DNA of 64,000 bases from an uncultured Eubacteriales bacterium (GTDB taxonomy: Bacteria > Bacillota > Clostridia > Christensenellales > UBA1242). Positions 1 through 42,995 of the stretch are shown here, piece by piece. Position numbers and translations under genes: made by a program. The notes beneath the pieces were generated by a model. That model was not told the origin of the DNA. It saw nothing but the letters and a program-made list of their open reading frames with translations, and did not search any database. How positions within the stretch are numbered: the first letter of the stretch is position 1; each line of letters opens with the position of its first letter. The stretch covers positions 7,661 to 71,660 of the forward strand of contig CARNVA010000008.1 of the NCBI GenBank assembly GCA_949031345.1. The letters are read 5' to 3'.

Positions 1-22
1 CACAAGGCGTATAAGAGAATCA

Positions 23-439
23 ATGAAAAAAGCAATTGTCTTTGCAACTATTGATTTTGAAGTTTTAATTCAAAAAATGTTGGAAAGTCCATATTTGCAT
101 GAAGTTGAAGACAACAACACTCAATTTGTATTGACACTTGAACAAATAGACTTTATATACAAAATCAAAAACATGTGTAACAAACAAATTGACTGTCAAA
201 TTGCCTGTTACCCTAACATCAATTTACCTCATCTATACAACAAGATAAGAGAGAGTGAGTTTTTGCTTACAAACAGCAACCTCAATCTTAAATGGCTTTT
301 AGAACACGCAAGCGAAATAATGAAAGATAAGTACAAGCAATACTACCCAAGACAGGAAGAACACAAAAAGGGTTTCCAAGGGCGGAATAATACACCCGAT
401 TATTGGAACTCACTATTCAACAATCCAAATGATATTTAA
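23..439 (+). CDS. hypothetical protein (element-borne)
   Basis: 138-aa ORF on the module strand. No motif recognised. Confidence 0.5.
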   Translation: MKKAIVFATIDFEVLIQKMLESPYLHEVEDNNTQFVLTLEQIDFIYKIKNMCNKQIDCQIACYPNINLPHLYNKIRESEFLLTNSNLNLKWLLEHASEIMKDKYKQYYPRQEEHKKGFQGRNNTPDYWNSLFNNPNDI

Positions 440-442
440 CTT

Positions 443-559
443 ATGAAAGCAATACAACAATCAATCATTCCTGGCATGGAAGCTTCTGTGGAAGCAATAG
501 AAAAACAATTTAAAAAGTCGAAAGCACAAAAAGAAAAACAAAAAAGGAGGAAATCGTGA
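443..559 (+). CDS. small basic K/Q-rich peptide (38 aa), hypothetical
   Basis: ORF below the track cutoff, with ATG at 443 and TGA at 557-559. Its stop overlaps the GTG start of the next gene (GTGA). Confidence 0.3.
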   Translation: MKAIQQSIIPGMEASVEAIEKQFKKSKAQKEKQKRRKS

Positions 560-753
560 AAGTTTTTAAAGGAATAATTACATTTTTGTTTATCGTTAGC
601 GTTTCATTTATGATTACAACCCTGACTTTTGCAGTAGAACATAAACATACTTTTACAGAAGAAATTCAATCTTGGAGTCCTGCAAAAGAAAGCCCAGCTG
701 ACTCAACCAATGAAAAAATTGAAATTGAAAACAACGAAATTATTATTAAATAA
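556..753 (+). CDS. small secreted or membrane protein (65 aa)
   Basis: GTG start 6 nt after AAGGAGG. An N-terminal hydrophobic signal-like segment (IITFLFIVSVSFMITTLTFA) is followed by an acidic tail. Confidence 0.5.
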   Translation: MKVFKGIITFLFIVSVSFMITTLTFAVEHKHTFTEEIQSWSPAKESPADSTNEKIEIENNEIIIK

Positions 754-769
754 AAGTCGAGGTAAAAAA

Positions 770-862
770 ATGAAGGCTGTAAGAATTATAAAATACATTT
801 TTATTTTCTGCATATTAGTCGGCAGCTCAGCACTAGCAGGCTATCTTACACTATTGAATTGA
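770..862 (+). CDS. 30-aa hydrophobic peptide, candidate coat or assembly peptide
   Basis: ORF below the track cutoff with a GAGG RBS. Translation is MKAVRIIKYIFIFCILVGSSALAGYLTLLN. Its size and hydrophobicity resemble filamentous-phage minor or major coat peptides. Confidence 0.35.
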   Translation: MKAVRIIKYIFIFCILVGSSALAGYLTLLN

Positions 863-868
863 GGTTTT

Positions 869-2158
869 ATGGAAAAATTAAAAACTGGAACAAAAGTTAT
901 TAGCATAATTTTAGCCGTTATTATTGGACTTGCCTGCTTAATTATTGATGCCTGGTTTCTGTACATAAAACTGCATGGCGAAACAAAAATGACTTCGGTC
1001 ACTGTAAATATGAATGAATTAAAACTGGCAGACGGCAGTACAAAAGAGATAATACAAATAAAACATAAGCGAAATAAAAATCGCAGCGGCATTGAACTTT
1101 TTGAAATCAAATTAAATTATTTAACCAACGAAAATAAGGATGCCTTTTTCAGTCAAGGCCTTCAATATGCCGGCAATAGCTTAAACAGTGCTATAGTATG
1201 GAAAGACTTTGATTACATTTCAAAAACAGCAGGAAATTGGGATTATAAATTTAACCAATACAAATTGCAAGAAGTCTCAAGGTTTCTTTGGAAGGGCAAC
1301 TACTACGCAAGCTACTTTTCCCCTTTTACAGACACTAAAAAATATGAATATCAATCATTCAATGACTTTGCAACAATAGGATCAACTAACCCTATAACTC
1401 CAAGTTCATACTTTACCCTTCAACTTGGCGGTACTAATGAAATCATATATATGCAATTGAAAGGCGATAATTATGCGACGATAAATAAAGCAACACATTT
1501 GATTACTGCCGACCAAGAGGAAAGTATAGGCTATAAAAGCCGTGAAGGCACCTTTGAATCCGACTATATAACTATCTTCAACGACTATAACATGGACTAT
1601 TTTGCTTACACCCTCTATCAAAGCATTTCTACTTTGCCTTCAGGCACGAAAGGAAAGTTTGTTTTTGAATTTGGGAATATTTTTAAATATTTTCTTGCAG
1701 AAAATGGCTTTGTTGGAAATGAAATTCAAACTGAAGATTCTACAAAAGTCATAAACAATATTAAGTCCTACTATACAATTTCTGTTGAAGTCTATGATGA
1801 CGGAGCAAAAAATGCAAACGATAGTATGTTTGGCGTTATTAAAAACGACCCTACCTTCTCAATTAAACCTTCTTATGGCGACTCGGGAAATTACTTTGCA
1901 GGAACGTCAATATTAGACTGCGACATTTACGATTTTGATTTAGTAAGGATTGATGAAATTTATTGTGCATTAAAACTTAAAAAAGAATTTTTAAGTGCAT
2001 ATGAAAAATATGCAAAGGATATAAAGCTGAATATTGTCATAGATACTTCTATTTTAAAAGCTCAAGGACTTGATTATGCTGGCTTTGCAACCGATAGCGG
2101 ACTTGACAATTTTACTATTTTAAACACCACCATTCTACAGGAGGTGCAAAATGCTTAA
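869..2158 (+). CDS. membrane-anchored protein (429 aa), function unknown
   Basis: Long ORF with an N-terminal TM helix (VISIILAVIIGLACLIIDAWFLYI). No catalytic motif recognised. Confidence 0.7.
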   Translation: MEKLKTGTKVISIILAVIIGLACLIIDAWFLYIKLHGETKMTSVTVNMNELKLADGSTKEIIQIKHKRNKNRSGIELFEIKLNYLTNENKDAFFSQGLQYAGNSLNSAIVWKDFDYISKTAGNWDYKFNQYKLQEVSRFLWKGNYYASYFSPFTDTKKYEYQSFNDFATIGSTNPITPSSYFTLQLGGTNEIIYMQLKGDNYATINKATHLITADQEESIGYKSREGTFESDYITIFNDYNMDYFAYTLYQSISTLPSGTKGKFVFEFGNIFKYFLAENGFVGNEIQTEDSTKVINNIKSYYTISVEVYDDGAKNANDSMFGVIKNDPTFSIKPSYGDSGNYFAGTSILDCDIYDFDLVRIDEIYCALKLKKEFLSAYEKYAKDIKLNIVIDTSILKAQGLDYAGFATDSGLDNFTILNTTILQEVQNA

Positions 2159-3458
2159 TTTATTTTTCAACATAACGCCCATTTATGACGTCATAATTCT
2201 TATCTTAATGATCCTACTCATCATTGCTGTAATAAAAGAACCAAAATGTAGAGTGTATGTATTTACCCTATTTATTGCTGCCTTTCTTGCACTGACAGCT
2301 TATAGCGGAATAGAACTCAACTATTATTACCAGGCAAAAGGTGGAATATTTGGTCACATAAAAGATATTGCTCATTCAAATAAAGTTAATATCGAAAACA
2401 CAAAATTTGAGTTTGAAAACATTGTATTAGTGAAGGATGTTGACAGCAATTTCTCTGCAGAGATTACTATTGATGACATTGTTACGCTTGACAAAAATAG
2501 CAACTATACGATTTATATCAACAACACGCCCTGCACTAATTCAGCGTTTAAAAGCAATTATTTAATGGCTGATTTTAGATACCAGTTTATAAACGATAAT
2601 GAAAAAGTATTGAAAGATGATACTTTGAAATTTCGTTTTTCGTTTAACAAAAACAATACTTACATAAAAATTTACACATCTGGTGGACAGCTTGCTGCTG
2701 ATTATTGGCTTCAGTTTTTTGACCGAAATGGCTTAATTATTGAGTTGAAAAAAGTACAACTAGATGACGAATTATCTTTTGTCGATGGTGAAATTTCTGA
2801 TTTTGTAAAAATTGAATATTATGTCGATGACGAAATTTTTACTTATCAATCAATTAAAAAAGGCGAGAAATTAAAACTCGCAAATGCACCAGAAAAAGAA
2901 AATCATATCTTCTTAGGTTGGCTTTCTGAAAGCAACGATTGCATTTTGGAAGATTATGTTGTTGTTGAGAATATGAAACTTCACGCTTCTTATAAAGAAG
3001 CAAGGATTTATTCCGATTTTGTTTTTAATGGCGGATATTTTGAAAAATATGTCGGTGTTGAGGAAAATGTTGTTGTTCCTGCGTCTTATTCGCTGACCCC
3101 CGACGGCCGTGCTTATGAGGGAGACGAACATATTGTTTTTGGCATTTCAATGTTTGCCTTTGAAAATAACGATTACATAAAGTCAATAACCTTCCCTTCT
3201 ACAATAACAATTTTAGAGTCACATTCAATTTACAACTGTAATTCACTGCAATATGTAGTTTTAAATTCTACCATTCCGCCTTTAATTGGGCCAGAGCACT
3301 TCTGTATAACAGAAGTTGAAGAATTAAATGTTTATGTTCCTGATAAAGCATTTTTAGATTACCAAAATTATTGCTATGACCCCGAAGGCTGGGGCACAAC
3401 ATATGAAACACCTTATGTAAAACTTTGTAAATTATCAACTTTGATAATTACTCATTAA
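2151..3458 (+). CDS. membrane protein with Listeria-Bacteroides-type repeat and BspA-like leucine-rich repeats (435 aa)
   Basis: The ATG overlaps the upstream stop (ATGCTTAA) behind a GGAGG RBS. It has two N-terminal TM helices, an 'HIFLGWLSE' repeat signature, and C-terminal LRRs (ITFPSTITILESHSIYNCNSLQYVVL). Confidence 0.75.
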   Translation: MLNLFFNITPIYDVIILILMILLIIAVIKEPKCRVYVFTLFIAAFLALTAYSGIELNYYYQAKGGIFGHIKDIAHSNKVNIENTKFEFENIVLVKDVDSNFSAEITIDDIVTLDKNSNYTIYINNTPCTNSAFKSNYLMADFRYQFINDNEKVLKDDTLKFRFSFNKNNTYIKIYTSGGQLAADYWLQFFDRNGLIIELKKVQLDDELSFVDGEISDFVKIEYYVDDEIFTYQSIKKGEKLKLANAPEKENHIFLGWLSESNDCILEDYVVVENMKLHASYKEARIYSDFVFNGGYFEKYVGVEENVVVPASYSLTPDGRAYEGDEHIVFGISMFAFENNDYIKSITFPSTITILESHSIYNCNSLQYVVLNSTIPPLIGPEHFCITEVEELNVYVPDKAFLDYQNYCYDPEGWGTTYETPYVKLCKLSTLIITH

Positions 3459-3472
3459 AATGGAGGAAATAT

Positions 3473-5414
3473 ATGAAAAAAAACAACAAAATGGATAATT
3501 GGCGGTGCTGTAGTATTATTACTAAGCACTGGCTTGACTTTAGGTCATGTTTTTAGACACGAAATAAAAGATTGGGTTAAAGGTTTTCAATCGTCCAAGC
3601 CAAACCCAAGCCCTGTAGATCCTAAGCCACCTATTCAACTTACTTGCTTGGTTTCAGTTGAAATTCACCGCCCTGACGGTGTTGAAAAAGAAAGTCAAGA
3701 GGTAGAAACTGGATATGAGCTGGAACTTCCTGATACTAATGCCATGGATGAAATTGAAGGTTATATTGCACGCTACTTTTATGTTACTGGATCGGGCTAT
3801 AACAACAGAAAATTACTTGGCGGACAAACTATCACCATTACAAGCGACACAAAAATTACTGTAGCTTATGAAAAAATTATCACAATTGCCTTTGACGTTG
3901 ACGGCAATATAGAATTTCAAGAAGTGATTGAAGGAGACTCCCCTTTTTGGAGAACACCTTCAAAAGTCGGCATGAACTTTGATGGCTGGACTTTGGACGG
4001 AGAAAATGTAATTGACTTATCAAAATATAAAGTAACAGAGTTTGTTACGTTTATCGCAAAATTTTCTTATAAATATTACACTGTTGAATTTGTTCTTAGT
4101 GACACAATGAGATTAAGCTGTAATTATCGCAGCGATAATCAAGTTTATGTTCCAGCGCCTCTTCAAATTGAAGGCAAAGATTGCCTGGGCTGGACTAAAG
4201 ATGGTGAGAATGTCTTTGATTTTAATAAAGTTATTACTGAAGATACCGTCTTCCACCCTTTATATGCCGATCAATCATTTGATGAAACGCTCCCTTTTGC
4301 AATAGAAAATGGTGAAATTACTGGTTATTCTGGGAACGAATCAAATGTTGTAATTCCATCCTCCTATTCTGTCGACAGTCGCGGCAATATAATCGAAGGA
4401 AATGATTATCAAATTGTTAAAATAAGAGATTTTGCGTTTAGAGATTCAAACATGGTTTCTGTTGAAATTATGCCTGGCGTAATTTCAATTGGTGACCAAG
4501 CTTTCTATAATTGCCTTAATCTTGAAAGAGTTATAATCCATGAAGGTTTGACTAGTCTTGGAGATTTAGCATTTGCTGAGTGTGATAATTTAATTTCTAT
4601 AGAACTACCATCTACTATCAATGAATTAAATGGATTTACTTTTTCTGAAATCGACAATTTGCAAAATATTCAAATTTCCGAAGATAACCCTTCTTATAAA
4701 AGTGAAGGCTCAGTTATTCTTACAAAAGATGGCTCACATTTAGTTTTTGCAACAAAAGATGCAGTCATTCCAGAGTCAGTCATTGTAATTGACAATTATG
4801 CTTATGTCTATTCTAAAGTTAAAGAACTAGTTTTGCCGGATTGTGTAACGACAATTGAAGAAAATGCTTTTATGGGATGCAGCGAGCTTACTTCATTAAC
4901 CTTGTCTGCAAACTTACAATTTGATTGGCAATCACAATGCTTTTTGCAAAACTTGGATAAATTTGAAAAACTTGTGATTAAAAATAAAATAGAGAATGCC
5001 TCAAATTTAATCCATGTTCAGTCATTTCAACCTAGAACAAGCTTAATCAATGTCTACGTTCCAGATGAATATTTAGAAGATTATATCAATGCATTCATGT
5101 ATTCTTCACCAATTGTTGTCAATACACTCTCTTCTTTAGAAACTGGCGAAACTCCAACAAAACATGCCGTTTTGTTTAGATATCCTTCAACAGCTGAATA
5201 TTTAGACAATTACAATTGTGCTGATGGTAAAATTTGTGAAACAGGCGACAAGGTTGGCTATAACCACACCGCTCAACTTGAAGGTTATAGATTCTTGCAT
5301 TGGGTAAAGCAAGACCCATTGACAATGGAAGAGGTTGAAGTTGTTGAAGATATTGAGAATTATTTAATTACAGAAAATACTATTTTTAAAGCAATATTTA
5401 GCCCAATTATATAA
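3473..5414 (+). CDS. LRR / Listeria-Bacteroides-repeat protein, candidate adsorption protein; reading frame broken at an A8 tract after the start codon
   Basis: GGAGG lies 8 nt before ATG 3473. In the sequence as given, ATG plus A8 (3476..3483) runs into a stop after 27 codons. With A7 it reads MKKTTKWIIGGAVVLLLSTGLTLGHVF..., a classic signal anchor continuous with ORF 3534..5414. The body has 'FDGWTLDGENV' and 'CLGWTKDGENVF' repeats and BspA-type LRRs. Confidence 0.7.
3476..3483 (+). repeat. A8 homopolymer at codons 2-4 of the LRR protein gene
   Basis: Counted directly as eight consecutive A. Tract length decides whether ATG 3473 is in frame with the 626-aa ORF. Confidence 0.9.
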
Positions 5415-5431
5415 AAAAAGGAGAAAAACTC

Positions 5432-5659
5432 ATGAAAAAAGTAAAAAAAACAACAAAAACACCCAAAAACAAAGAAAGACGCCCTCTAAAAGGCTCTAAA
5501 ACGCCCATTAAGTCTTCTTCAACCAAATCTTCAAGTAAAGGCTCTAAAACCTCACCTAGACCAACCAGCAAAGCCAAATTAAAATCAACTGCTCTAAAAC
5601 CATCAAATATAAGCAAAACTAAGCGTAAAGTTAAAGCTGTAACTATCTATTACGCATAA
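5432..5659 (+). CDS. small strongly basic K/S/T/P-rich protein (75 aa)
   Basis: GGAG RBS. The composition suggests a nucleic-acid-binding or disordered protein. Confidence 0.5.
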   Translation: MKKVKKTTKTPKNKERRPLKGSKTPIKSSSTKSSSKGSKTSPRPTSKAKLKSTALKPSNISKTKRKVKAVTIYYA

Positions 5660-5668
5660 AGGCAAATA

Positions 5669-6589
5669 ATGAAAATCTATGACGATATTATAAAAATATT
5701 TGAAGATGGAATATTTGGTCCCACTGATATTGTTATTATTTGGGGCAAACGACGACGGGGTAAAAGTTCCCTTGCAGGAATGTTTATGGACCAATTCATG
5801 CGACCTAAAATTGCCAAAAATGATGTGCAAACATCAAAGGCAATTTGCAATCAAATAAGAGAAGCAGGTTATAACATACACCCACCAACTGACCATACTG
5901 TTTTTTGTGATACTTTCTTTGAAAGTAAAGGGTTTGGTAGAAAAAGAAACTCTCCATATAAATTTAATGGAATAGATTTTGGACTTCCAAATGAAACTCA
6001 TAATACTGAACTATTATGTCCATGCGGTAGATACTTTCTTGACGAAACACAGGACCTTTTTGATAGTCACAGACCCTCTCTCTCCACTTTTGTTACTAAA
6101 TCAATTGAATTGTCAGGGCAAATGAAAATATTCTTATGCCTTATTGCTCAGCGTCCAAAAAGAATACATATTGACATAAGAGAACTTGCCGTATTTATTG
6201 AGGTTGTTAAAATGAAAAAAGTTTACAACAAATATGGTCGAATAATTGAATGTTTTTGGGAATGTAATATCATTTATGAAAATGCGGATTTAGAGCAATA
6301 TTTAAACACTCATGATAGGAAGTATATTGATAAGCGTGTTATGTTTAAATATAAAGGTAATATTTTCAATTGCTATGATACCAACTATTTTTTACCAATG
6401 TTTTTTAGAAACATGGAGAATCGAGATTTAATACTTGAAAAAACAAAAAGGACTGAATTCTCAACATCATTTTTTGATGAATATTTTAAAAATCGTGTTA
6501 TTGATATACCTGATTCGTATTTTGGCAAAAAACCAAAAAGTCCTAAAAAGGAGGAAGTTTTAAGTGCAGACGGAAAAACAGTGGCGTGA
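5669..6589 (+). CDS. Zot / pI-like P-loop NTPase (filamentous-phage assembly ATPase family)
   Basis: Walker A is IIIWGKRRRGKSS and Walker B is GRYFLDETQDLF. These are followed by the Zot-like segment SGQMKIFLCLIAQRPKRIHIDIRELAVFIE. No C-terminal TM helix was seen, which is atypical for pI. Confidence 0.6.
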   Translation: MKIYDDIIKIFEDGIFGPTDIVIIWGKRRRGKSSLAGMFMDQFMRPKIAKNDVQTSKAICNQIREAGYNIHPPTDHTVFCDTFFESKGFGRKRNSPYKFNGIDFGLPNETHNTELLCPCGRYFLDETQDLFDSHRPSLSTFVTKSIELSGQMKIFLCLIAQRPKRIHIDIRELAVFIEVVKMKKVYNKYGRIIECFWECNIIYENADLEQYLNTHDRKYIDKRVMFKYKGNIFNCYDTNYFLPMFFRNMENRDLILEKTKRTEFSTSFFDEYFKNRVIDIPDSYFGKKPKSPKKEEVLSADGKTVA

Positions 6590-7004
6590 ACATGAAGAAT
6601 TAAAAACCATGGCTGATTATATGGATGAATTAACAAATATGATTGAACTTTCCCAAGGCTTAGATGGCTCTCAATCTGCGGAAGAACTTGATAAAATTAT
6701 TTCATTGCTACTTAGAGCAATTAAAGAGAAAGAAAAATATGTTATTAAGCGTTCAAGGAAATGGCGAAAAAAGCAAGGCTTTTTATCAAGATTTAAAGAT
6801 ACTATTGAAGAACGACGTGCTTTAAAGGCTTTAAAACATGCTGAGAATGATGAGTACGATGAACAAGATGAAACAGACGAAACAGACGAAGAAAAAGAAG
6901 AAGAGCCTATCAATACAACTTGTACAAATCAAACGCAACAATTGATTACAAATTCACCTTCGCCAGCCCTTGAAGAAGGTCAACAAGAATTGTTGGAATT
7001 TTAA
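6564..7004 (+). CDS. acidic coiled-coil protein (146 aa)
   Basis: GTG start after AGGAGG, overlapping the upstream gene. Contains a D/E run (DEYDEQDETDETDEEKEEE). Confidence 0.5.
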   Translation: MQTEKQWREHEELKTMADYMDELTNMIELSQGLDGSQSAEELDKIISLLLRAIKEKEKYVIKRSRKWRKKQGFLSRFKDTIEERRALKALKHAENDEYDEQDETDETDEEKEEEPINTTCTNQTQQLITNSPSPALEEGQQELLEF

Positions 7005-7090
7005 AAAATCTTGAAAAAAATCAAAAGCCGGCAAAAGAAACACTATGAGCGTAGCCAAGTGTTCTTGCCGCTTTGATTTTCAAGATTTTT
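7005..7090. repeat. long imperfect inverted repeat (about 32 paired positions) in the intergenic region
   Basis: The left arm is AAAATCTTGAAAAAAATCAAAAGCCGGCAAAAGAAACACT and the right arm is AGTGTTCTTGCCGCTTTGATTTTCAAGATTTT. Small bulges lie only on the left arm, and the loop is about 13 nt. Confidence 0.8.
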
Positions 7091-7104
7091 AAAGTCCAAA
7101 TTTA

Positions 7105-7129
7105 CCAAACGCAAAATTTTTGCGTTTGG
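7105..7129. promoter_or_regulatory. perfect 12+1+12 palindrome upstream of the XRE regulator gene (operator or origin candidate)
   Basis: The sequence is CCAAACGCAAAA-T-TTTTGCGTTTGG. A further GCGTTTGCG half-site follows at about 7134-7145. Confidence 0.6.
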
Positions 7130-7216
7130 GCAATTGCGTTTGCGAAATTTTACACAAAAAAATTAAAAATTTCAATTTCAAAAACTTTCAAAATCAAAAA
7201 TTTAACGGAGGAAAAT

Positions 7217-7396
7217 ATGGCTGAAATCAAAAAAATGATAAATGCAATACTCACAAAAGGCAACATGAACCAAAAGGAACTTGCTGCCAAACTTAAAGTT
7301 TCGCCTGCTCAAATCACCCGCTGGCGTGATGACGCAGAACCACGCCTTAAAAATTACCAGGAACTTGAAAAAATTTACAACGATTTGCCAGCTTAA
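7217..7396 (+). CDS. XRE-type helix-turn-helix regulator (59 aa)
   Basis: ATG lies 6 nt after GGAGG. The HTH signature is NQKELAAKLKVSPAQITRWR. The track ORF 7073..7396 is a spurious 5' extension. Confidence 0.75.
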   Translation: MAEIKKMINAILTKGNMNQKELAAKLKVSPAQITRWRDDAEPRLKNYQELEKIYNDLPA

Positions 7397-7411
7397 AAAA
7401 AAGGAGAAAAT

Positions 7412-7819
7412 ATGAAAAGAAAATATATAAGCTATATTGAATTAGTAGAAGAATTACATAAATGCGAAAGCTTAATAACATCACTTGAAGATGATGTTTT
7501 ATATGAAAAGAAAAGGCAAGATAATTTAAACCTTTTAACTAACTATATGTTTAAAGAAGATATCAACTTCATAGAAAGAAAACATATAAAGGACAAACAA
7601 AGCCTACAACATTACATATTGCCCATCAAAGCCCTAGAAGTTGCTAGGCAAAACTGCCCTGAAATAATAATGTGCGGGAAAAGAAAAAGACTAAACGCCT
7701 TCAATGTAGGAGAAGTGCTTGAAGACTTTGTTTCTTTTATTTGTCAAGAAAAAGGTCATAAAATAGGAGTTGGTGACTATCTTATACAAAAATATTTAGA
7801 TGAAAGAGAGTTTTATTAA
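7412..7819 (+). CDS. hypothetical protein (135 aa)
   Basis: GGAG RBS and a long ORF. No motif recognised. Confidence 0.55.
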   Translation: MKRKYISYIELVEELHKCESLITSLEDDVLYEKKRQDNLNLLTNYMFKEDINFIERKHIKDKQSLQHYILPIKALEVARQNCPEIIMCGKRKRLNAFNVGEVLEDFVSFICQEKGHKIGVGDYLIQKYLDEREFY

Positions 7820-8429
7820 AATGGTTTCAAATGATTTGATTAGGTCAATTGGTTATGACCAACAAGAAATAATAAACAACATCTTAAAGCTCTACAACGA
7901 CTCACAACCTATTGATTTTGACCCTTGCTACAATTTAGGAATGTTTTATAAAAATAATAAAGTATGTGCTCCAAGAGTGAAAAGTGATATAAAACCTCTT
8001 CTACAGGGAGTCGAAAAACTAGATGTGCAATATTTACCATTCATAGATGAATTTAATTGCATTATCTTTGACCCGCCTTTTTTAGCTGGCGGTGGATCGG
8101 GCTCAAAAATGGCTCAGCGTTATGGTTCTTTTAAAAACGTTGAAGAACTTCAGCAATTTTTTGTAAATTCTTTTTTCTCTCTGCAGAGAGCTTTAAAAAA
8201 GAAAGGGCTACTTATTGTAAAATGCCAAGACTTTGTAAGTGGCCGGAGAAATTATTTCATGATTGATTTTGTATTAAACTTGGCCAGAGATTTTAATTTC
8301 AAAGTATTAGATTTGTTTATTCTTTTGTCAAAGACAAGACCAACAAAAATTCAACATCAGCAACATGCTAGAAAATATCACTCATACTTCATTGTACTAA
8401 AAAATAAAGGAGGTAAATATGGGACTTAG
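7800..8429 (+). CDS. small DNA methyltransferase (N6-adenine or N4-cytosine class)
   Basis: Catalytic-type motif CIIFDPPFLAGGG (a DPPF/Y variant) in a roughly 200-aa protein. The start codon is uncertain (7800 or 7821). Confidence 0.6.
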   Translation: MKESFIKMVSNDLIRSIGYDQQEIINNILKLYNDSQPIDFDPCYNLGMFYKNNKVCAPRVKSDIKPLLQGVEKLDVQYLPFIDEFNCIIFDPPFLAGGGSGSKMAQRYGSFKNVEELQQFFVNSFFSLQRALKKKGLLIVKCQDFVSGRRNYFMIDFVLNLARDFNFKVLDLFILLSKTRPTKIQHQQHARKYHSYFIVLKNKGGKYGT

Positions 8430-8658
8430 TATTTGGAATCAAGTCAACACGGATAAATTTTTCTGCATATCAAAGATTGACAAAAAGACATTAGAAAAGC
8501 ATGGGATAAATATACCAGTAACACAATTCAAAGATATTGTAAAGAAAACTCCACCGCACAACCAAATACCAACAGGAAGCACCAATTCGCATGGTCATTT
8601 ACGTATGACCAATATTTATCGTTTTGAGGACTTTGACTATCTAAAATCAACCAATTAA
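8419..8658 (+). CDS. hypothetical protein (79 aa)
   Basis: AGGAGG RBS. The start overlaps the end of the upstream gene. Confidence 0.5.
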   Translation: MGLSIWNQVNTDKFFCISKIDKKTLEKHGINIPVTQFKDIVKKTPPHNQIPTGSTNSHGHLRMTNIYRFEDFDYLKSTN

Positions 8659-8672
8659 AAGGAAATAATCAA

Positions 8673-9008
8673 ATGAAAAATAATAAAATTGACAAAGAAA
8701 CGAAAATTTACAAACCAAAAAAATGGAGCTTTAGAAAAAATAAAGCAAGAGAGAACCACCCTTCACTTGTTATAGGTGAAAATGGAAACAATTATGCTAA
8801 TTTAGGACTAACTCACTCTCCCAAAAGAGGACATCACAAAAATACAGAACTGTCAAAAAATCCAAATACAAAAGACAAAAAAACATCTTATATTAGAGAC
8901 GATTTAAAATATGATAAAAAAGAAAACTTAAAGGTAATTCTAAAAGATTACAAATTGTCCTCAAAAGACGTAGATAAAATATTAAAAATAATCAATAAAA
9001 AAAGATAG
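8673..9008 (+). CDS. basic hypothetical protein (111 aa)
   Basis: K-rich ORF and the last gene of the co-oriented block. Ends with TAG. Confidence 0.5.
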   Translation: MKNNKIDKETKIYKPKKWSFRKNKARENHPSLVIGENGNNYANLGLTHSPKRGHHKNTELSKNPNTKDKKTSYIRDDLKYDKKENLKVILKDYKLSSKDVDKILKIINKKR

Positions 9009-9559
9009 CCACTAGGCGGTAGTCATTAGCTACCACGGGTCTATCCTTACAGCTACAATCTCTTGTAACTATTATTAGTATATACTACTTTTTCATAAAT
9101 TGCAACAATTTAACCAAATTTTATGAAAAATTTAGGAGGTAGCCAATGTAAAATGAAAAATATTTTTGCTTAAAATCACGAAAACATATTAAAAATTGAG
9201 TAAAAAAGGCATTTTTAGTTGATATGCCTTTTTTTTGACGTCAAAAGTGCTACTAAAATCTTACTATTCACCCCGCCAAAAACTTCCAGGACTAAAAGAA
9301 AGTAGCAAAGAAAATTTACCATTATATTTTATTTCTATTATATATTTTCTTTCATAGAGAAAAACTAATACTTAATATATGCTAAATAAAAATACTTATA
9401 TTATATACTTAATATATATATTATATATAATTTATATATATAGTGTGAAAAGCGGACTTATTTCAAAAGACAGCTTCCGCTGTCGGCTAACAAGTAAGGA
9501 AAGTCTATTGACCTCATTTCCCTATTCCGCCAAGCCTGATTGAAATTAAAAACAAAAAA

Positions 9560-9583
9560 AGTTTAGTCAAAAGTTTAGTCAAA
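9560..9583 (+). repeat. tandem 12-mer AGTTTAGTCAAA x2 next to the att site
   Basis: Two exact adjacent copies, 48 nt upstream of the tRNA fragment. Confidence 0.85.
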
Positions 9584-9630
9584 AAAGTCTACTTGCCTTT
9601 GTTTATAACACTTATAGCGTTTTAATTTAG

Positions 9631-9678
9631 TGCCTTACAAGCAGAGGGTCATAGGTTCGAGCCCTATAACTCCCACCA
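9631..9678 (+). other. 3' half of a tRNA-Val(UAC)-like gene (anticodon loop to CCA), putative attR
   Basis: The fragment reads tgc-CTTACAA-GCAGA-GGGTC-ATAGG-TTCGAGC-CCTAT-AACTCCC-A-CCA. No matching 5' acceptor strand (GGGAGTT), D-arm or 5' anticodon stem lies upstream. A native-looking terminator follows. Confidence 0.6.
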
Positions 9679-9685
9679 AAACAGA

Positions 9686-40016: not shown

Positions 40017-42995
40017 TTATTTGCTAAAGCCAAGCTCCTGAAGCTTTTCTTCTGTCAAAGTTTCTCCACCTTCTGCAAGCCAGGTCAAACCTTTGGGCAA
40101 TGGACATCCATCAGCCATAACAATCCAATTTGAAAAATCTTCACCTACATATTTCTTTGTGCCATTGTCATAAATGCAGTTTTCAACTGTGCAAGATACT
40201 GGGCAAAAAACCTCAATTAAAGAGGAAACAATTGCCATACAATCGGTGATTTTTCCTCCCAGCATATAGCCTGAAATTAAGCCCTGATTTGATGATACAA
40301 CAAAGCCTCCTTTAAATACGCACGCTTTTATCTCAGTTTCGCGCACACCAGTCTGTCCAATAATCCCACCACTGCCAGAGCCTTTTATATTGCACCTTGT
40401 CACACAGTTTGATATGGTGATTTTGTTGTAATGATTGCTACCCAAAATGCCGCCCGCGCATGAAGTGGCAATAATATCTCCATAGTTGAAACAATAAGAT
40501 ATATCACACCCATTACTTGTTCCCACCATGCCGCAATTATCCGTGGCCCTAACAACCACGCCGCTTCGACAACCTTCAATGCTGCCCGTTTTGTCCTCGC
40601 CCGCATAAATTGCCTCAACGCGACCTGCAATTGAGCCAACATACGATTTCCCATAAACATTTCCAGATATAATATTGATATTTTTTAAAGTCGCCCCAAT
40701 GCAACAGCCAAACAAGCCAACATTTGAATAAATGTATCCCCCTGCCTCGCTTCCCTCTTTTGCACTCGAGGTGGAAAGATTTTTGATTAAATAACCGTTT
40801 CCGTCATAATGCCCTTTAAACCCATTATCACTGTCACTTCCTATCGGCAACCATAACCTGCTAACCTCAGCACCTTCTTTATCTGTTGCCAAATCTATCG
40901 TCCTTGTCTGTTTGAAATAAACGGCAGAAAAACTCGTCGAATTTTCAACCGATTTTGAAATAAACGCCAAATCTTCAGCACTTGAAACAAGATATGGGTC
41001 ATCTTTAACACCGCCACCAGCTAAACTGCTTGAAGCATATAGATTCCAAGTCTCTTCCCACTGGGCATATAATGTAAAATCACTTGTTATGTTTGAGACA
41101 AATTGATTTTCATAATAAATGGTGCCACTTCCGTCACGCTGCGTGTTCCAACTTTTGAAAATATAACCTGCCTTAACAAAGTCATTGCTTGGAAGTTTCA
41201 CGCTGCCCGCAGCATATTTGACACCTGCAGCAGACATATTTCCACTTCCACCATTTGCATTGAAAGAAATATAGAAAGTCTTGGCTTCCCACCGGGCAAA
41301 TATAGTAAAGGCTGTTTCCACATTCATTATACTTTCACTTTCAAACTTGTTTCCACCACTATCAAACCAGCCTCTAAAATCATAGCCCGTTCTCTCATTC
41401 AGCGATGGTAGCGTCCCAAAGGACGAATCGAAATCGATGTCTTTCACCGCATTGTCGCCACTCTTTGTCCATCCATTAAGAGCATTGAAATTCAAACTTC
41501 CACCATTCGGATTTGCCGTGACTTTAATTTTTTTTACTGTCCACTGCGCTTCAAAAGTGGCTTCTGGCCTAGTCAACATTGGAAATCTATCTACATATAG
41601 ATAACCATTTGAATCAAGTCTGTAAGTATATCTATTCTCAAGACATTTCCATCCAGTCAAAGTATAACCTGTTTTTACAGGCTTTAAATGTGGTCTGAAT
41701 ACCGAATTGGCAGCTACATCTTGAAAACTATGACTGCCTGTATTGCCATTTATATTTCCACCATTAAGCAACAACTTAACAGTATACTTCTGTAAAGAAG
41801 CAGCTGCCGCTGTCAAATTCAAATGAAAAGCAGGTCTTACACCTCTGCGGTGCCAAACGTCAATTGTACTTATTTGATTGCCTGTTGCACTAATAGAATA
41901 TGCTTTATTGGCATACCAAGGGTCTGCCGTTCTCAGCCATGTATCGCTGTATAAATATTCTCTATATGGCGTTTGGACTGAGCCAACGAAGCCTGACTCA
42001 TACTCATTTTTTCCTGTATAAGATTTGTTCTGCTCAACTGATGTTTGCCACATACCTTTAATTTCTGTATAACTTGGAAGCCAAATATAATCTTCTGACC
42101 AATCATTCGAAGCCTTGGTAGCATAGTTGAATGAGCCGCCAGGATAACTGTTAAAATTATAATCTTGACCATAATAATTACCATAATCTGGAATACGATT
42201 TGACCAATTCTCGTTTGATAAAGAATAATCACCCAGCCCAAAGAATGGTGCGCTCTGCCCATGTTCTTGCCATATTACATTAAACGGCTTTACAATATAA
42301 TTGGTAATACTTCCCTCGATACCAGGCATTGTGAATTTTGCAAAGGCACTATTTGTACTAGGTTGAATTGGCCCAACCATTTGACTTCCACTGCTAGCAA
42401 AATCATAACCATTATTTAAAACGACAGCACGAATGTAGTTTGCACCATACATATTTGATGGCAAATTGACTGAAGGGTCACTATTACTAAATGCCGCCCA
42501 AGAAGAATATAAGATTCCCCCTGCCGTCCCACTGAGATAACCATGCAACTGCCCTTCAGTCTGACTTCTATTTGCAAAAGCTTCTTGAAGATTGTTTGAA
42601 AGCCATAAAGTCAAAATCCAGTTTTGATTTTTGTCTGGTGTCAAACACACAGCTTGCCAGTCAAGCCCAGCAACTCTCACCATCACATCATGATTGGGTG
42701 ATTTATTATAATTTTTCGCTTTTATTGCAGATGCATCGGCAAAAGCAAGCTTATTCATATTGTACACATTGGTCTCACCACTGCCTGAAATAAGTTGCAT
42801 CAGATTGTTCAAATTGCCTTCATTAAAAGCATTTCCATTCCAAATTTCATTTACTTTTACATAACTTGAAGTGTCAGTGACTGCCACTGCATCCGCTTTT
42901 TTGATTATGCCTTCAAAACTAAGCCCCATAAGAAGAGAACAAACAGCAAAAAGAAAGCAACATATCATCACTGAAATTTCGCCAAGCTTTTTCAT
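40017..42995 (-). CDS. large secreted surface protein (992 aa) with a DUF6273-like module, Listeria-Bacteroides repeats and a GLUG-type C-terminal region
   Basis: The signal anchor is MKKLGEISVMICCFLFAVCSLLMG. Motifs include WLRTADPW...RGVRPAFHLNL, and the repeats GYTLTGWKC, GYDFRGWFD and GYIFKSWNT. GGILGSN and GGIIGQT motifs are also present. Confidence 0.85.
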   Translation of the reverse strand: MKKLGEISVMICCFLFAVCSLLMGLSFEGIIKKADAVAVTDTSSYVKVNEIWNGNAFNEGNLNNLMQLISGSGETNVYNMNKLAFADASAIKAKNYNKSPNHDVMVRVAGLDWQAVCLTPDKNQNWILTLWLSNNLQEAFANRSQTEGQLHGYLSGTAGGILYSSWAAFSNSDPSVNLPSNMYGANYIRAVVLNNGYDFASSGSQMVGPIQPSTNSAFAKFTMPGIEGSITNYIVKPFNVIWQEHGQSAPFFGLGDYSLSNENWSNRIPDYGNYYGQDYNFNSYPGGSFNYATKASNDWSEDYIWLPSYTEIKGMWQTSVEQNKSYTGKNEYESGFVGSVQTPYREYLYSDTWLRTADPWYANKAYSISATGNQISTIDVWHRRGVRPAFHLNLTAAAASLQKYTVKLLLNGGNINGNTGSHSFQDVAANSVFRPHLKPVKTGYTLTGWKCLENRYTYRLDSNGYLYVDRFPMLTRPEATFEAQWTVKKIKVTANPNGGSLNFNALNGWTKSGDNAVKDIDFDSSFGTLPSLNERTGYDFRGWFDSGGNKFESESIMNVETAFTIFARWEAKTFYISFNANGGSGNMSAAGVKYAAGSVKLPSNDFVKAGYIFKSWNTQRDGSGTIYYENQFVSNITSDFTLYAQWEETWNLYASSSLAGGGVKDDPYLVSSAEDLAFISKSVENSTSFSAVYFKQTRTIDLATDKEGAEVSRLWLPIGSDSDNGFKGHYDGNGYLIKNLSTSSAKEGSEAGGYIYSNVGLFGCCIGATLKNINIISGNVYGKSYVGSIAGRVEAIYAGEDKTGSIEGCRSGVVVRATDNCGMVGTSNGCDISYCFNYGDIIATSCAGGILGSNHYNKITISNCVTRCNIKGSGSGGIIGQTGVRETEIKACVFKGGFVVSSNQGLISGYMLGGKITDCMAIVSSLIEVFCPVSCTVENCIYDNGTKKYVGEDFSNWIVMADGCPLPKGLTWLAEGGETLTEEKLQELGFSK

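Follow-up and report, generated by a model that had tools for sequence, protein, structure and literature searches.

Several described systems resemble, each in part, the integrated element described here. The 'Clade-1' genomes Ino-01 to Ino-06 are inovirus-like genomes of human-gut Firmicutes with a stand-alone Zot ATPase (Sugimoto et al. 2021, PMC8530359), and one criterion listed for a genuine pI, the ATPase that assembles filamentous phages, is the possession of one or two transmembrane domains (TMDs; Roux et al. 2019, PMC6813254). Acholeplasma virus L2 (Plasmaviridae, L13696) is a budding double-stranded DNA (dsDNA) virus, enveloped and pleomorphic, that has been described as sharing only its integrase with other viruses (ICTV profile, 2018), and for IME1 of Dehalococcoides a dsDNA, non-lytic filamentous or budding virus has been proposed (bioRxiv 10.64898/2026.09.15.751708). 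The element treated here is carried by an uncultured Eubacteriales bacterium (genome label G000) and begins on the left of, and extends into, a window of 64,000 nucleotides, the whole stretch analyzed, which corresponds to positions 7661–71660 of contig CARNVA010000008.1 (C8). It is probably a self-sufficient virus-like prophage built around a Zot-type ATPase. Positions below are those of the window unless C8 or a locus label (L followed by a number) is given, and L001 is the left part of the element, fetched from the 7.6 kb left of the window.

An intact tRNA-Val(TAC) occupies C8 3025–3100, and its 3' part is contained in a 49-bp exact repeat, C8 3053–3101, whose second copy at C8 17291–17339 (9631–9679, + strand) forms attR and is followed by the tRNA's own terminator hairpin. 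From the positions of these repeats the element spans C8 3053–17339, or −4607 to 9679, and measures 14,238 bp per unit, so that 4.6 kb of it lies outside the window and the block within is its right two-thirds, probably corresponding to the morphogenesis and late genes. A sequence-only reading of the window had called this block, 1–9678, an inovirus-like prophage and had predicted an intact tRNA-Val and an integrase to its left; both are found 4.6 kb left of the window, and the end it had placed at 9678 is the half-tRNA of attR. The left part encodes, on the − strand, a tyrosine integrase of 417 aa (PF00589 3e-11; phrog_1 1e-36) and an XRE/cI-type repressor of 115 aa (HTH_3 8e-16), between which lies, in this copy and in no other, a DUF3800 gene (L001 4692–5507, −) that may be cargo of the lysogeny module; a divergent intergenic region follows, which holds two direct repeats of 37 nt, and small open reading frames (ORFs) lie beyond it. 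Upstream, where the earlier reading had allowed for conjugative machinery, none is seen, the genes there being those for the integrase, DUF3800, cI and a winged helix-turn-helix (wHTH) protein. The generic features of a temperate prophage are all present, namely att direct repeats, a tyrosine integrase and cI, together with an excised or tandem junction and circular contigs, which come from siblings and not from the window copy. The empty integration site was not recovered among 30 relatives, the species-level ones being too diverged at the DNA level. The host genome is 1.33 Mb in size, 34% GC and 97.7% complete, and the host genus is characterized by very small genomes (0.8–1.3 Mb at 94–100% completeness) that have kept penicillin-binding proteins.

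The element belongs to a family found in uncultured gut Clostridia, whose members have neither tails nor lysis genes and fall within the stand-alone-Zot lineage. Homologues of the ATPase at 45–70% identity come from unannotated contigs and from 15 loci of metagenome-assembled genomes (MAGs) titled uncultured Clostridia, Eubacteriales or Firmicutes, and the ATPase family is present in 28 of 301 species genomes, or 16 of 150 genera, sampled from the host order. When all proteins of the element were searched by tblastn, one order was recovered in more than 15 loci: integrase, cI, wHTH protein, small transmembrane (TM) peptides, a 429-aa protein (p429), the N-terminal module of a 435-aa protein (p435), one or more anchored acidic proteins, a polybasic protein, the ATPase, an acidic protein, an XRE regulator and a 79-aa protein (o79), with one or two of these genes missing in some members. 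Because this order has been kept in more than 15 independent loci, the layout is not a matter of chance. Members of the family measure 12.7–16.6 kb, and their att sites are in tRNA-Val, tRNA-Leu and tRNA-Arg genes.

Evidence of mobility comes from siblings. Two independent assemblies of one sibling, made from different samples and measuring 14,154 and 14,132 bp, are circular permutations of each other at 100% identity, and from the inferred overlap of their ends, 77 bp in one and 55 bp in the other, the same circle of 14,077 bp is obtained. The entire 33,279-bp MAG contig CARJLX010000007.1 (L021) is a perfect two-fold repeat with a period of 16,589 bp, and represents a circular genome that was assembled through two turns or else a tandem array included in the MAG bin. 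The closest sibling, L040/L041, is 90–99.6% identical to the window element from the wHTH gene to the right end (L040 1308–14087 versus C8 6769–17174); its members are integrated in tRNA-Leu(TAA) with a 59-bp repeat, carry a different integrase of 363 aa and have no DUF3800 gene. Near-identical elements have exchanged their integration modules. In contig L042, obtained in another run, the right end of L040 is joined to the integrase end exactly across the 59-bp core, a junction that represents attP of the excised circle, a tandem array being less likely.

The sole recognizable virion-assembly gene of the family is, judging from profile matches, that of a soluble stand-alone ATPase of Zot/pI type. 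In the window it encodes 306 aa (5669–6589, +), with the Walker A motif GKRRRGKSS and the Walker B motif YFLDETQD. Searched alone, this protein finds no Pfam Zot and no PHROG match, giving only a weak match to nSTAND3, while an exhaustive phmmer search gathered 170 clusters of ATPases, mostly of 260–300 aa, among 1.8e9 representative proteins. Among 75 diverse members of this family, 57 match PF05707 Zot (best E 3e-12), and the family profile finds in the PDB first 2r2a (E 1.3e-12), the N-terminal domain of a Neisseria Zot protein, and then KaiC (1e-3) and STIV B204 (0.011); single-sequence PDB searches with the ATPase and with ORF3 of L2 gave no match. By these profiles the ATPase belongs to the Zot/pI family, and the label 'Zot/pI-like' given to it by the sequence-only reading holds at that level, although the window protein itself has no direct Zot match; the absence of any Zot/pI match, which that reading had named as the outcome against it, did not occur at the family level.

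What this ATPase says about the kind of virus is a separate question. That Zot be the closest morphogenesis ATPase, one of the marks used by Roux et al. (2019), is true of the family, but the TMD that the same authors expect of pI is lacking in the window protein. No TM or hydrophobic segment is found in it, in 24 close aligned homologues or in the ATPases of the more distant loci L027, L029 and L031, so the doubt previously raised about a missing C-terminal TM helix is borne out; such an absence has been published for inovirus-like gut genomes associated with Firmicutes (PMC8530359). The AlphaFold2 model of the ATPase (predicted local distance difference test score (pLDDT) 94.1) is a soluble alpha/beta fold that matches, by Foldseek against BFVD, gut Zot proteins labeled 'Inoviridae sp.' (E 3.6e-10 to 1.6e-5) and also ORF3 of L2 (P42538; E 3.1e-7, probability 1.00, 286 columns, TM-score 0.45/0.44). 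Since the structural match extends over nearly all of ORF3 of L2, which is an enveloped dsDNA virus, the possession of a Zot-type ATPase does not discriminate between virus types. L2 ORF3 (L025 2278–3216) is itself a P-loop ATPase whose Zot-type match extends over nearly its full length, and none of the papers searched was found to note a link of this protein to Zot-type ATPases. In hhalign comparisons the ATPase family aligns with pI of phage B5 (75% probability, E 2.6e-5) and, weakly, with L2 ORF3 (26%, E 7.4e-4). Directly after the ATPase, and overlapping its stop with its own start, comes an acidic protein of 146 aa (6564–7004, +) without TM segments and with a conserved N-terminal portion of ~90 aa, which is presumed to be the partner of the ATPase; it occupies this place in ~15 loci and was not detected in L015, L018 and L020/L021.

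The subfamily to which the window element belongs is marked by its wHTH initiator-like protein, its polybasic protein and the p429/p435 pair. The wHTH protein has 250 aa (C8 7347–8099, +) and starts 314 nt left of the window, of which 1–439 holds its C-terminal 146 codons. Its N-terminal winged helix matches phrog_186 (DnaD-like helicase loader) and the replication-initiation families phrog_19658, phrog_270 and phrog_428 (E 1e-8 to 3e-6); HTH_36 is found in 7 of 10 members of its family and DnaD_N in 3 of 10, and the position of the gene is conserved across family loci, while a profile search of the PDB returned MarR-type winged helices only. A role as putative replication initiator or organizer is suggested by these matches. 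It stands where the earlier reading had expected an initiator of rolling-circle replication (RCR), which was not found: HUH, Rep_trans and G2P families are absent from the ORFs of the window element in Pfam and PHROG scans and from the siblings' genes with precomputed Pfam hits, and tblastn with the G2P Reps of L027 and L029 and with ORF9 and ORF2 of phage B5 gave no match at E<=0.1 in 23 subfamily loci. No single-stranded DNA (ssDNA)-binding protein is recognizable in the window element either. Outside the subfamily, the nearest ATPase outgroups (33–35% identity) adjoin REP_ORF2-G2P rolling-circle initiators, one of them also accompanied by an rve transposase, and another relative carries a Lin1244_N/DnaD-type protein. 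Because relatives of the ATPase are thus paired with a G2P Rep, a Lin1244_N/DnaD-type protein or the wHTH protein, replication modules have evidently been exchanged within the ATPase lineage.

From the wHTH gene onward the window block consists of 15–16 co-oriented ORFs on the + strand, fewer than the eighteen counted previously, with several overlapping stops and starts as had been described (556/559, 2151/2158, 6564/6589, 7800/7819 and 8419/8429). Following a soluble basic peptide of 38 aa (443–559, +), which has look-alikes between the initiator gene and the TM peptides in L009, L016, L022 and L017, come the small hydrophobic peptides that had been noticed from the letters and that do have positional counterparts in relatives. 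The larger is a single-pass membrane protein of 65 aa (556–753, +) with an N-terminal TM segment (residues 1–29), the motif EHxxTFTEEIxSW and an acidic tail; in L004, L009, L012, L013, L016, L017, L020 and L022 it has homologues or positional analogues of 73–103 aa, and it is a candidate major virion membrane or coat protein. The smaller, of ~30 aa (770–862, + strand, in an ORF open from 710), has wholly hydrophobic counterparts of 25–30 aa at the same position in L004, L009, L016 and L019. Both have the form of the short (30–90 aa) single-TMD structural-type proteins sought by Roux et al. (2019), and neither matches any coat-protein family in Pfam or PHROGs.

Three large proteins follow, for each of which an N-terminal membrane anchor had been proposed, and this holds for the first two as assembled. 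p429 (869–2158, +) combines an N-terminal TM helix with a beta-rich ectodomain, an architecture seen also in its AlphaFold2 model (mean pLDDT 75.8); it is conserved in most family loci examined, its 29 homologue clusters are all unannotated, and Foldseek, at E<=0.001, found no counterpart of its fold in PDB or BFVD. p435 (2151–3458, +) has two N-terminal hydrophobic segments and Pfam matches to LRR_5, a leucine-rich repeat (LRR) family (2.8e-6), and to Flg_new (4e-4). Its N-terminal ~285 aa form a conserved module, which is joined to differing C-termini in 14 loci and stands alone (204–207 aa) in L007 and L017; it is the variable C-terminus that carries Flg_new and LRR_5. The third is a surface protein with BspA-type LRR and Listeria-Bacteroides repeats (3473–5414, +; LRR_5 4.9e-32, Flg_new 1.1e-9 in Pfam), whose gene is frameshifted in the window assembly by an A8 run (3476–3483) directly after the ATG at 3473, so that the signal anchor is out of frame and the in-frame ORF, 3534–5414, encodes 626 aa. 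Five sibling contigs encode an intact anchored protein of 643 aa that begins MKKITKWIIGGAAIVILGTGL, and because these near-identical siblings have the intact form, the defect is specific to the window assembly or strain; it may reflect decay or phase variation, or be an artifact of assembly.

Across the family the anchored proteins in this position are acidic and variable, with LRR, Flg_new or no known domains, and this variability, like that of the p435 C-termini, is as expected of receptor-binding parts; the LRR/Flg_new protein is by its domains a candidate receptor-binding protein. The suggestion that these domains are of the same kind as those on host surface proteins in the window holds for Flg_new, which occurs in host proteins adjoining the element and at 40017–42995, and less so for the LRR domain, which is only 25–29% identical to host LRR proteins that lie on other contigs. 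The link to host adhesins is for this reason one of domain families only, and an origin of the LRR protein as a recent copy of a host adhesin finds no support at such identities.

Between the LRR gene and the ATPase lies the 75-aa very basic protein already noticed in the sequence-only reading (5432–5659, +), which is rich in K, S, T and P, has an isoelectric point of 11.4 and ends in a short hydrophobic strand, KVKAVTIYYA. Polybasic proteins of 72–100 aa with isoelectric points of 10.7–11.8 and a similar C-terminal strand are encoded upstream of the ATPase, next to it or a few genes away, in most members examined, namely L004, L007, L009, L012, L013, L016, L017, L018, L019, L020 and L022; none stands out in L008 or L015, and the RCR-type relatives L027 and L031 have none. 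Composition and position make the protein a candidate for condensing DNA or neutralizing its charge. L012 carries two copies of the gene, at 7432–7665 and 8305–8538, each followed by further basic proteins.

Compared with the genomes Ino-01 to Ino-06 and with the candidate families that Roux et al. (2019, PMC6813254) put forward, the window element has in common the Clostridia hosts, a Zot ATPase without a fused membrane domain and small TM proteins, and, with some members, a tyrosine recombinase and integration at the 3' end of a tRNA gene. By their descriptions, on which this comparison is based, those genomes have 5.6–9.4 kb, a detectable Inoviridae major coat protein and Rep genes, whereas the family described here has 12.7–16.6 kb, the wHTH and polybasic proteins and three large anchored proteins, and no detectable coat family or RCR Rep. 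Phage B5 of Propionibacterium (Paulinoviridae), like other filamentous phages of Gram-positive bacteria, resembles the element in its walled monoderm host, in the absence of a secretin and in a pI-like ATPase related at the profile level, but it has only 5.8 kb, and its ORF6 is unrelated to p429 (nothing by hhalign). In a collection of 50,697 phage records the ATPase matches only one gene (27% identity, E 9e-11), labeled 'Zot', of bajarodino virus 12 (PQ006185.1), a record assigned to Inoviridae; its protein passes the Pfam Zot threshold. The genome of this virus, a 9.8-kb circle in which an integrase, a repressor, small ORFs and two large ORFs precede Zot, is smaller, and only its ATPase, integrase and repressor are detectably similar to those of the window element; no particle data for it were found in the papers searched.

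L2 resembles the element in being temperate, in having a circular genome of ~12 kb with its morphogenesis genes on one strand, and in its tyrosine integrase with attP, L2-related prophages being found in tRNA genes. In addition to the structural match of ORF3, ORF11 of L2 matches the same replication-initiator PHROGs as the wHTH protein, and these shared weak matches are the sole link between the two, a BLASTP comparison having given none. The envelope protein ORF13 bears Ig and internalin-type domains of bacterial-surface kind where the window element has LRR and Flg_new, and the L2 virion has been described as condensed nucleoprotein within a membrane, with which the polybasic protein would fit. 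The differences are considerable: no similarity at the sequence level exists outside the ATPase, tblastn of all element proteins against L2 giving no match; homologues of its envelope and structural proteins ORF1, ORF13 and ORF14 are absent from the window element, with an hhalign probability of 0.2% for the p429 family against ORF1 and ORF13; the L2 envelope proteins belong to type I, combining a signal peptide with a C-terminal TM segment, whereas the anchors here are N-terminal; and L2 has no comparable polybasic protein and infects a host without a wall. IME1 is likewise integrated and combines a pI-like ATPase with several small TM proteins and no tailed-phage genes, but it exceeds 20 kb and is confined to Chloroflexota, so that the likeness is an analogy of concept, with no homology shown beyond the ATPase family.

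On these grounds the fullest description of the element, an intact, non-lytic, tail-less, temperate Zot-ATPase prophage that packages dsDNA, is put forward tentatively, its combined parts being a little short of probable. That dsDNA is packaged, in a particle resembling a plasmavirus or in a dsDNA filament, appears somewhat more likely than a classical ssDNA filament, because no RCR Rep was found and the wHTH protein shares its PHROGs with L2 ORF11, and also because the polybasic protein is specific to the subfamily, a DNA methyltransferase is carried and L2 ORF3 matches the ATPase model. The alternative is a classical inovirus (Tubulavirales), in which an ssDNA circle would be coated by the small TM proteins as its major and minor coat, with the large anchored proteins in the pIII-like role of tip or adsorption proteins, and be extruded as a filament through the wall by the pI-like ATPase. 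The Zot family membership, the RCR initiators of the closest outgroups, the hydrophobic peptides of ~30 and 65 aa before the large proteins, the stand-alone Zot reported for gut inovirus-like circles targeted to Clostridiales (PMC8530359), the filing of the sole phage-collection match under Inoviridae, the walled host, given that filamentous phages of Gram-positive bacteria are known, and the absence of lysis genes would all agree with it. It is nevertheless judged unlikely, though by no means negligible, as the element lacks a recognizable RCR initiator and ssDNA-binding protein, its ATPase lacks a TMD and has a fold found also in a dsDNA plasmavirus, no coat family is matched, the small TM protein ends in an acidic tail instead of the basic DNA-binding tail of inovirus coats while a separate polybasic protein exists, and a size of 12.7–16.6 kb reaches or exceeds the top of the range of characterized filamentous phages; a weak point of the same kind is that the coding strand is A-rich like host genes, against the T-rich strands of B5 and L027, since the RCR-type L029 is A-rich too. 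With no RCR Rep, no membrane segment in the ATPase, a polybasic protein and a match to L2 ORF3 about as good as that to Inoviridae Zot proteins, the label 'inovirus' in the sequence-only reading is not established, whereas its integrated prophage-like element with a Zot ATPase after TM peptides and anchored proteins is supported.

Several observations weigh against dsDNA packaging by an intact element. The matches behind the word 'initiator' are weak ones at the level of the winged helix, and the RCR Reps beside the nearest outgroup ATPases imply a lineage that descends from, or mixes with, ssDNA-type elements, just as the hhalign scores place the ATPase family closer to B5 pI than to L2 ORF3. 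The host, which has two PF00905 transpeptidase genes above the cut-off, is walled, as its penicillin-binding proteins indicate, and budding of enveloped particles would be harder from such a cell than extrusion of a filament. Junction and circular contigs could also be obtained from tandem integrated copies, the window copy has its LRR gene frameshifted, and in IMG/VR the single ATPase protein has no match and the family alignment (A2) finds one contig. That near absence from IMG/VR, together with the lack of an identifiable capsid or coat protein, a p429 of no known fold, the host-adhesin type of the LRR and Flg_new domains and the fact that integrative elements also form circles, would suit a non-viral element, such as a mobilizable or adhesin island or a satellite that takes over the particle of another phage, using its ATPase and membrane proteins for DNA transfer or surface display. 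This is improbable, however, for no ORF belongs to a conjugation family, be it relaxase, coupling protein, VirB4 or another (Pfam and PHROG scans and the siblings' precomputed Pfam hits), the Zot family is tied to virus morphogenesis in current databases, the combination of small TM peptides, anchored proteins and an ATPase is the layout by which such viruses are recognized, a distant relative of the same layout has been deposited as a complete circular virus genome from feces, and no tailed prophage that might be a helper turned up, although no search was aimed at one. A conjugative element is rejected, relaxase and type IV secretion families being absent. Least probable of all is a decaying, non-functional remnant, to which the frameshifted LRR gene could point: every other gene has an open frame, the two att copies agree perfectly along their 49 bp, the full gene set matches that of siblings seen as circles, and one difference in the length of a homopolymer may stem from misassembly or phase variation. 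An element of Tectiviridae or Corticoviridae type was also considered and set aside, as there is no capsid-like protein and the ATPase profile is nearer to Zot (1e-12) than to STIV B204.

For the dsDNA-packaging prophage favored here, a life cycle can be sketched, of which the replication mode, the coating of DNA by the polybasic protein, the non-lytic export and the packaging of dsDNA are inferred from gene content. The cI-type repressor would silence the element until excision yields a circle, as circles and junctions are seen in siblings, and the circle would then replicate as dsDNA, the winged-helix initiator recruiting the host replisome in place of rolling-circle replication. The polybasic 75-aa protein may coat the DNA and neutralize its charge, while the small single-pass proteins and the anchored 429-aa, 435-aa and LRR proteins would gather in the cell membrane; the ATPase and its acidic partner might then drive the export of the DNA–protein complex through or with the membrane, and the LRR/Flg_new protein would serve as receptor binder. 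Release without lysis is suggested because no lysin or holin family was found in any locus (Pfam and PHROG scans and precomputed Pfam hits of siblings). The particle may be filamentous or, like that of plasmavirus L2, membrane-bound, both being possible because the assembly ATPase of filamentous phages is present and their replication gene is not.

A more far-reaching and rather doubtful idea is that the family, as a lineage of Zot-ATPase viruses of walled gut Clostridia, forms a link between filamentous phages and plasmaviruses, in which rolling-circle replication would have been replaced by theta-type replication through the host replisome and the dsDNA condensed by a polybasic protein into a membrane- or protein-coated particle; if so, Plasmaviridae would be relatives of the Tubulavirales morphogenesis lineage. 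Independently of this, an 'Inoviridae' label given from a Zot match alone, as in databases, is unsafe, because here is a subfamily without the replication gene that makes ssDNA, and the ATPase fold is common to the dsDNA plasmavirus L2. The family is a concrete test case for whether Zot-type motors also export double-stranded genomes. With one IMG/VR contig against 28 of 301 genomes of the host order, tail-less non-lytic phages appear badly under-represented in virus catalogues, and both the adhesin-type LRR/Flg_new proteins and the exchange of integrase modules from one tRNA site to another bear on host range and on surface variation among gut Clostridia.

The right part of the element contains the remaining features on which the earlier reading had commented, and these were found as described. 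The hairpin-rich intergenic region (7005–7213) has inverted repeats I1–I6 over 6993–7203, a direct repeat D2 at 7120–7147 and TTGCGTTTG half-sites upstream of the XRE gene; it is most simply an operator or promoter, and may have a role in packaging or as an origin. The XRE/Cro-type HTH regulator (7214–7396, +; 60 aa, HTH_3 5e-7) is conserved in siblings and is followed by a 135-aa protein (7412–7819, +) that has no family matches and is present in the near-identical siblings L040–L046, and by the N6/N4 DNA methyltransferase of 209 aa with its DPPF motif (7800–8429, +; phrog_24333 5.1e-47, PF01555 3.1e-5). Near the right end, o79 (8419–8658, +) occurs in nearly all family loci, whereas the position of the next gene, that of the basic 111-aa protein o111 with HPSLVIGENG..GHHKN (8673–9008, +), varies among relatives, homologues being located before the ATPase in L007, L017 and L020, upstream of the LRR gene in L006 and also in L031. 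Basic proteins of ~110 aa recur in Zot elements of both RCR and wHTH type (L029 2709–3053, L015 9153–9479 and window 8673–9008); those of L029 and L015 have the motif LNPEH..G.PHD in common, where the window protein reads HPSLV..GHHKN. Just inside attR lie a tandem 12-mer (AAAAGTTTAGTC x2, 9557–9580) and a 22-nt repeat with 84-nt spacing (9493–9598), which may be arm-type binding sites of the integrase or of an excisionase.

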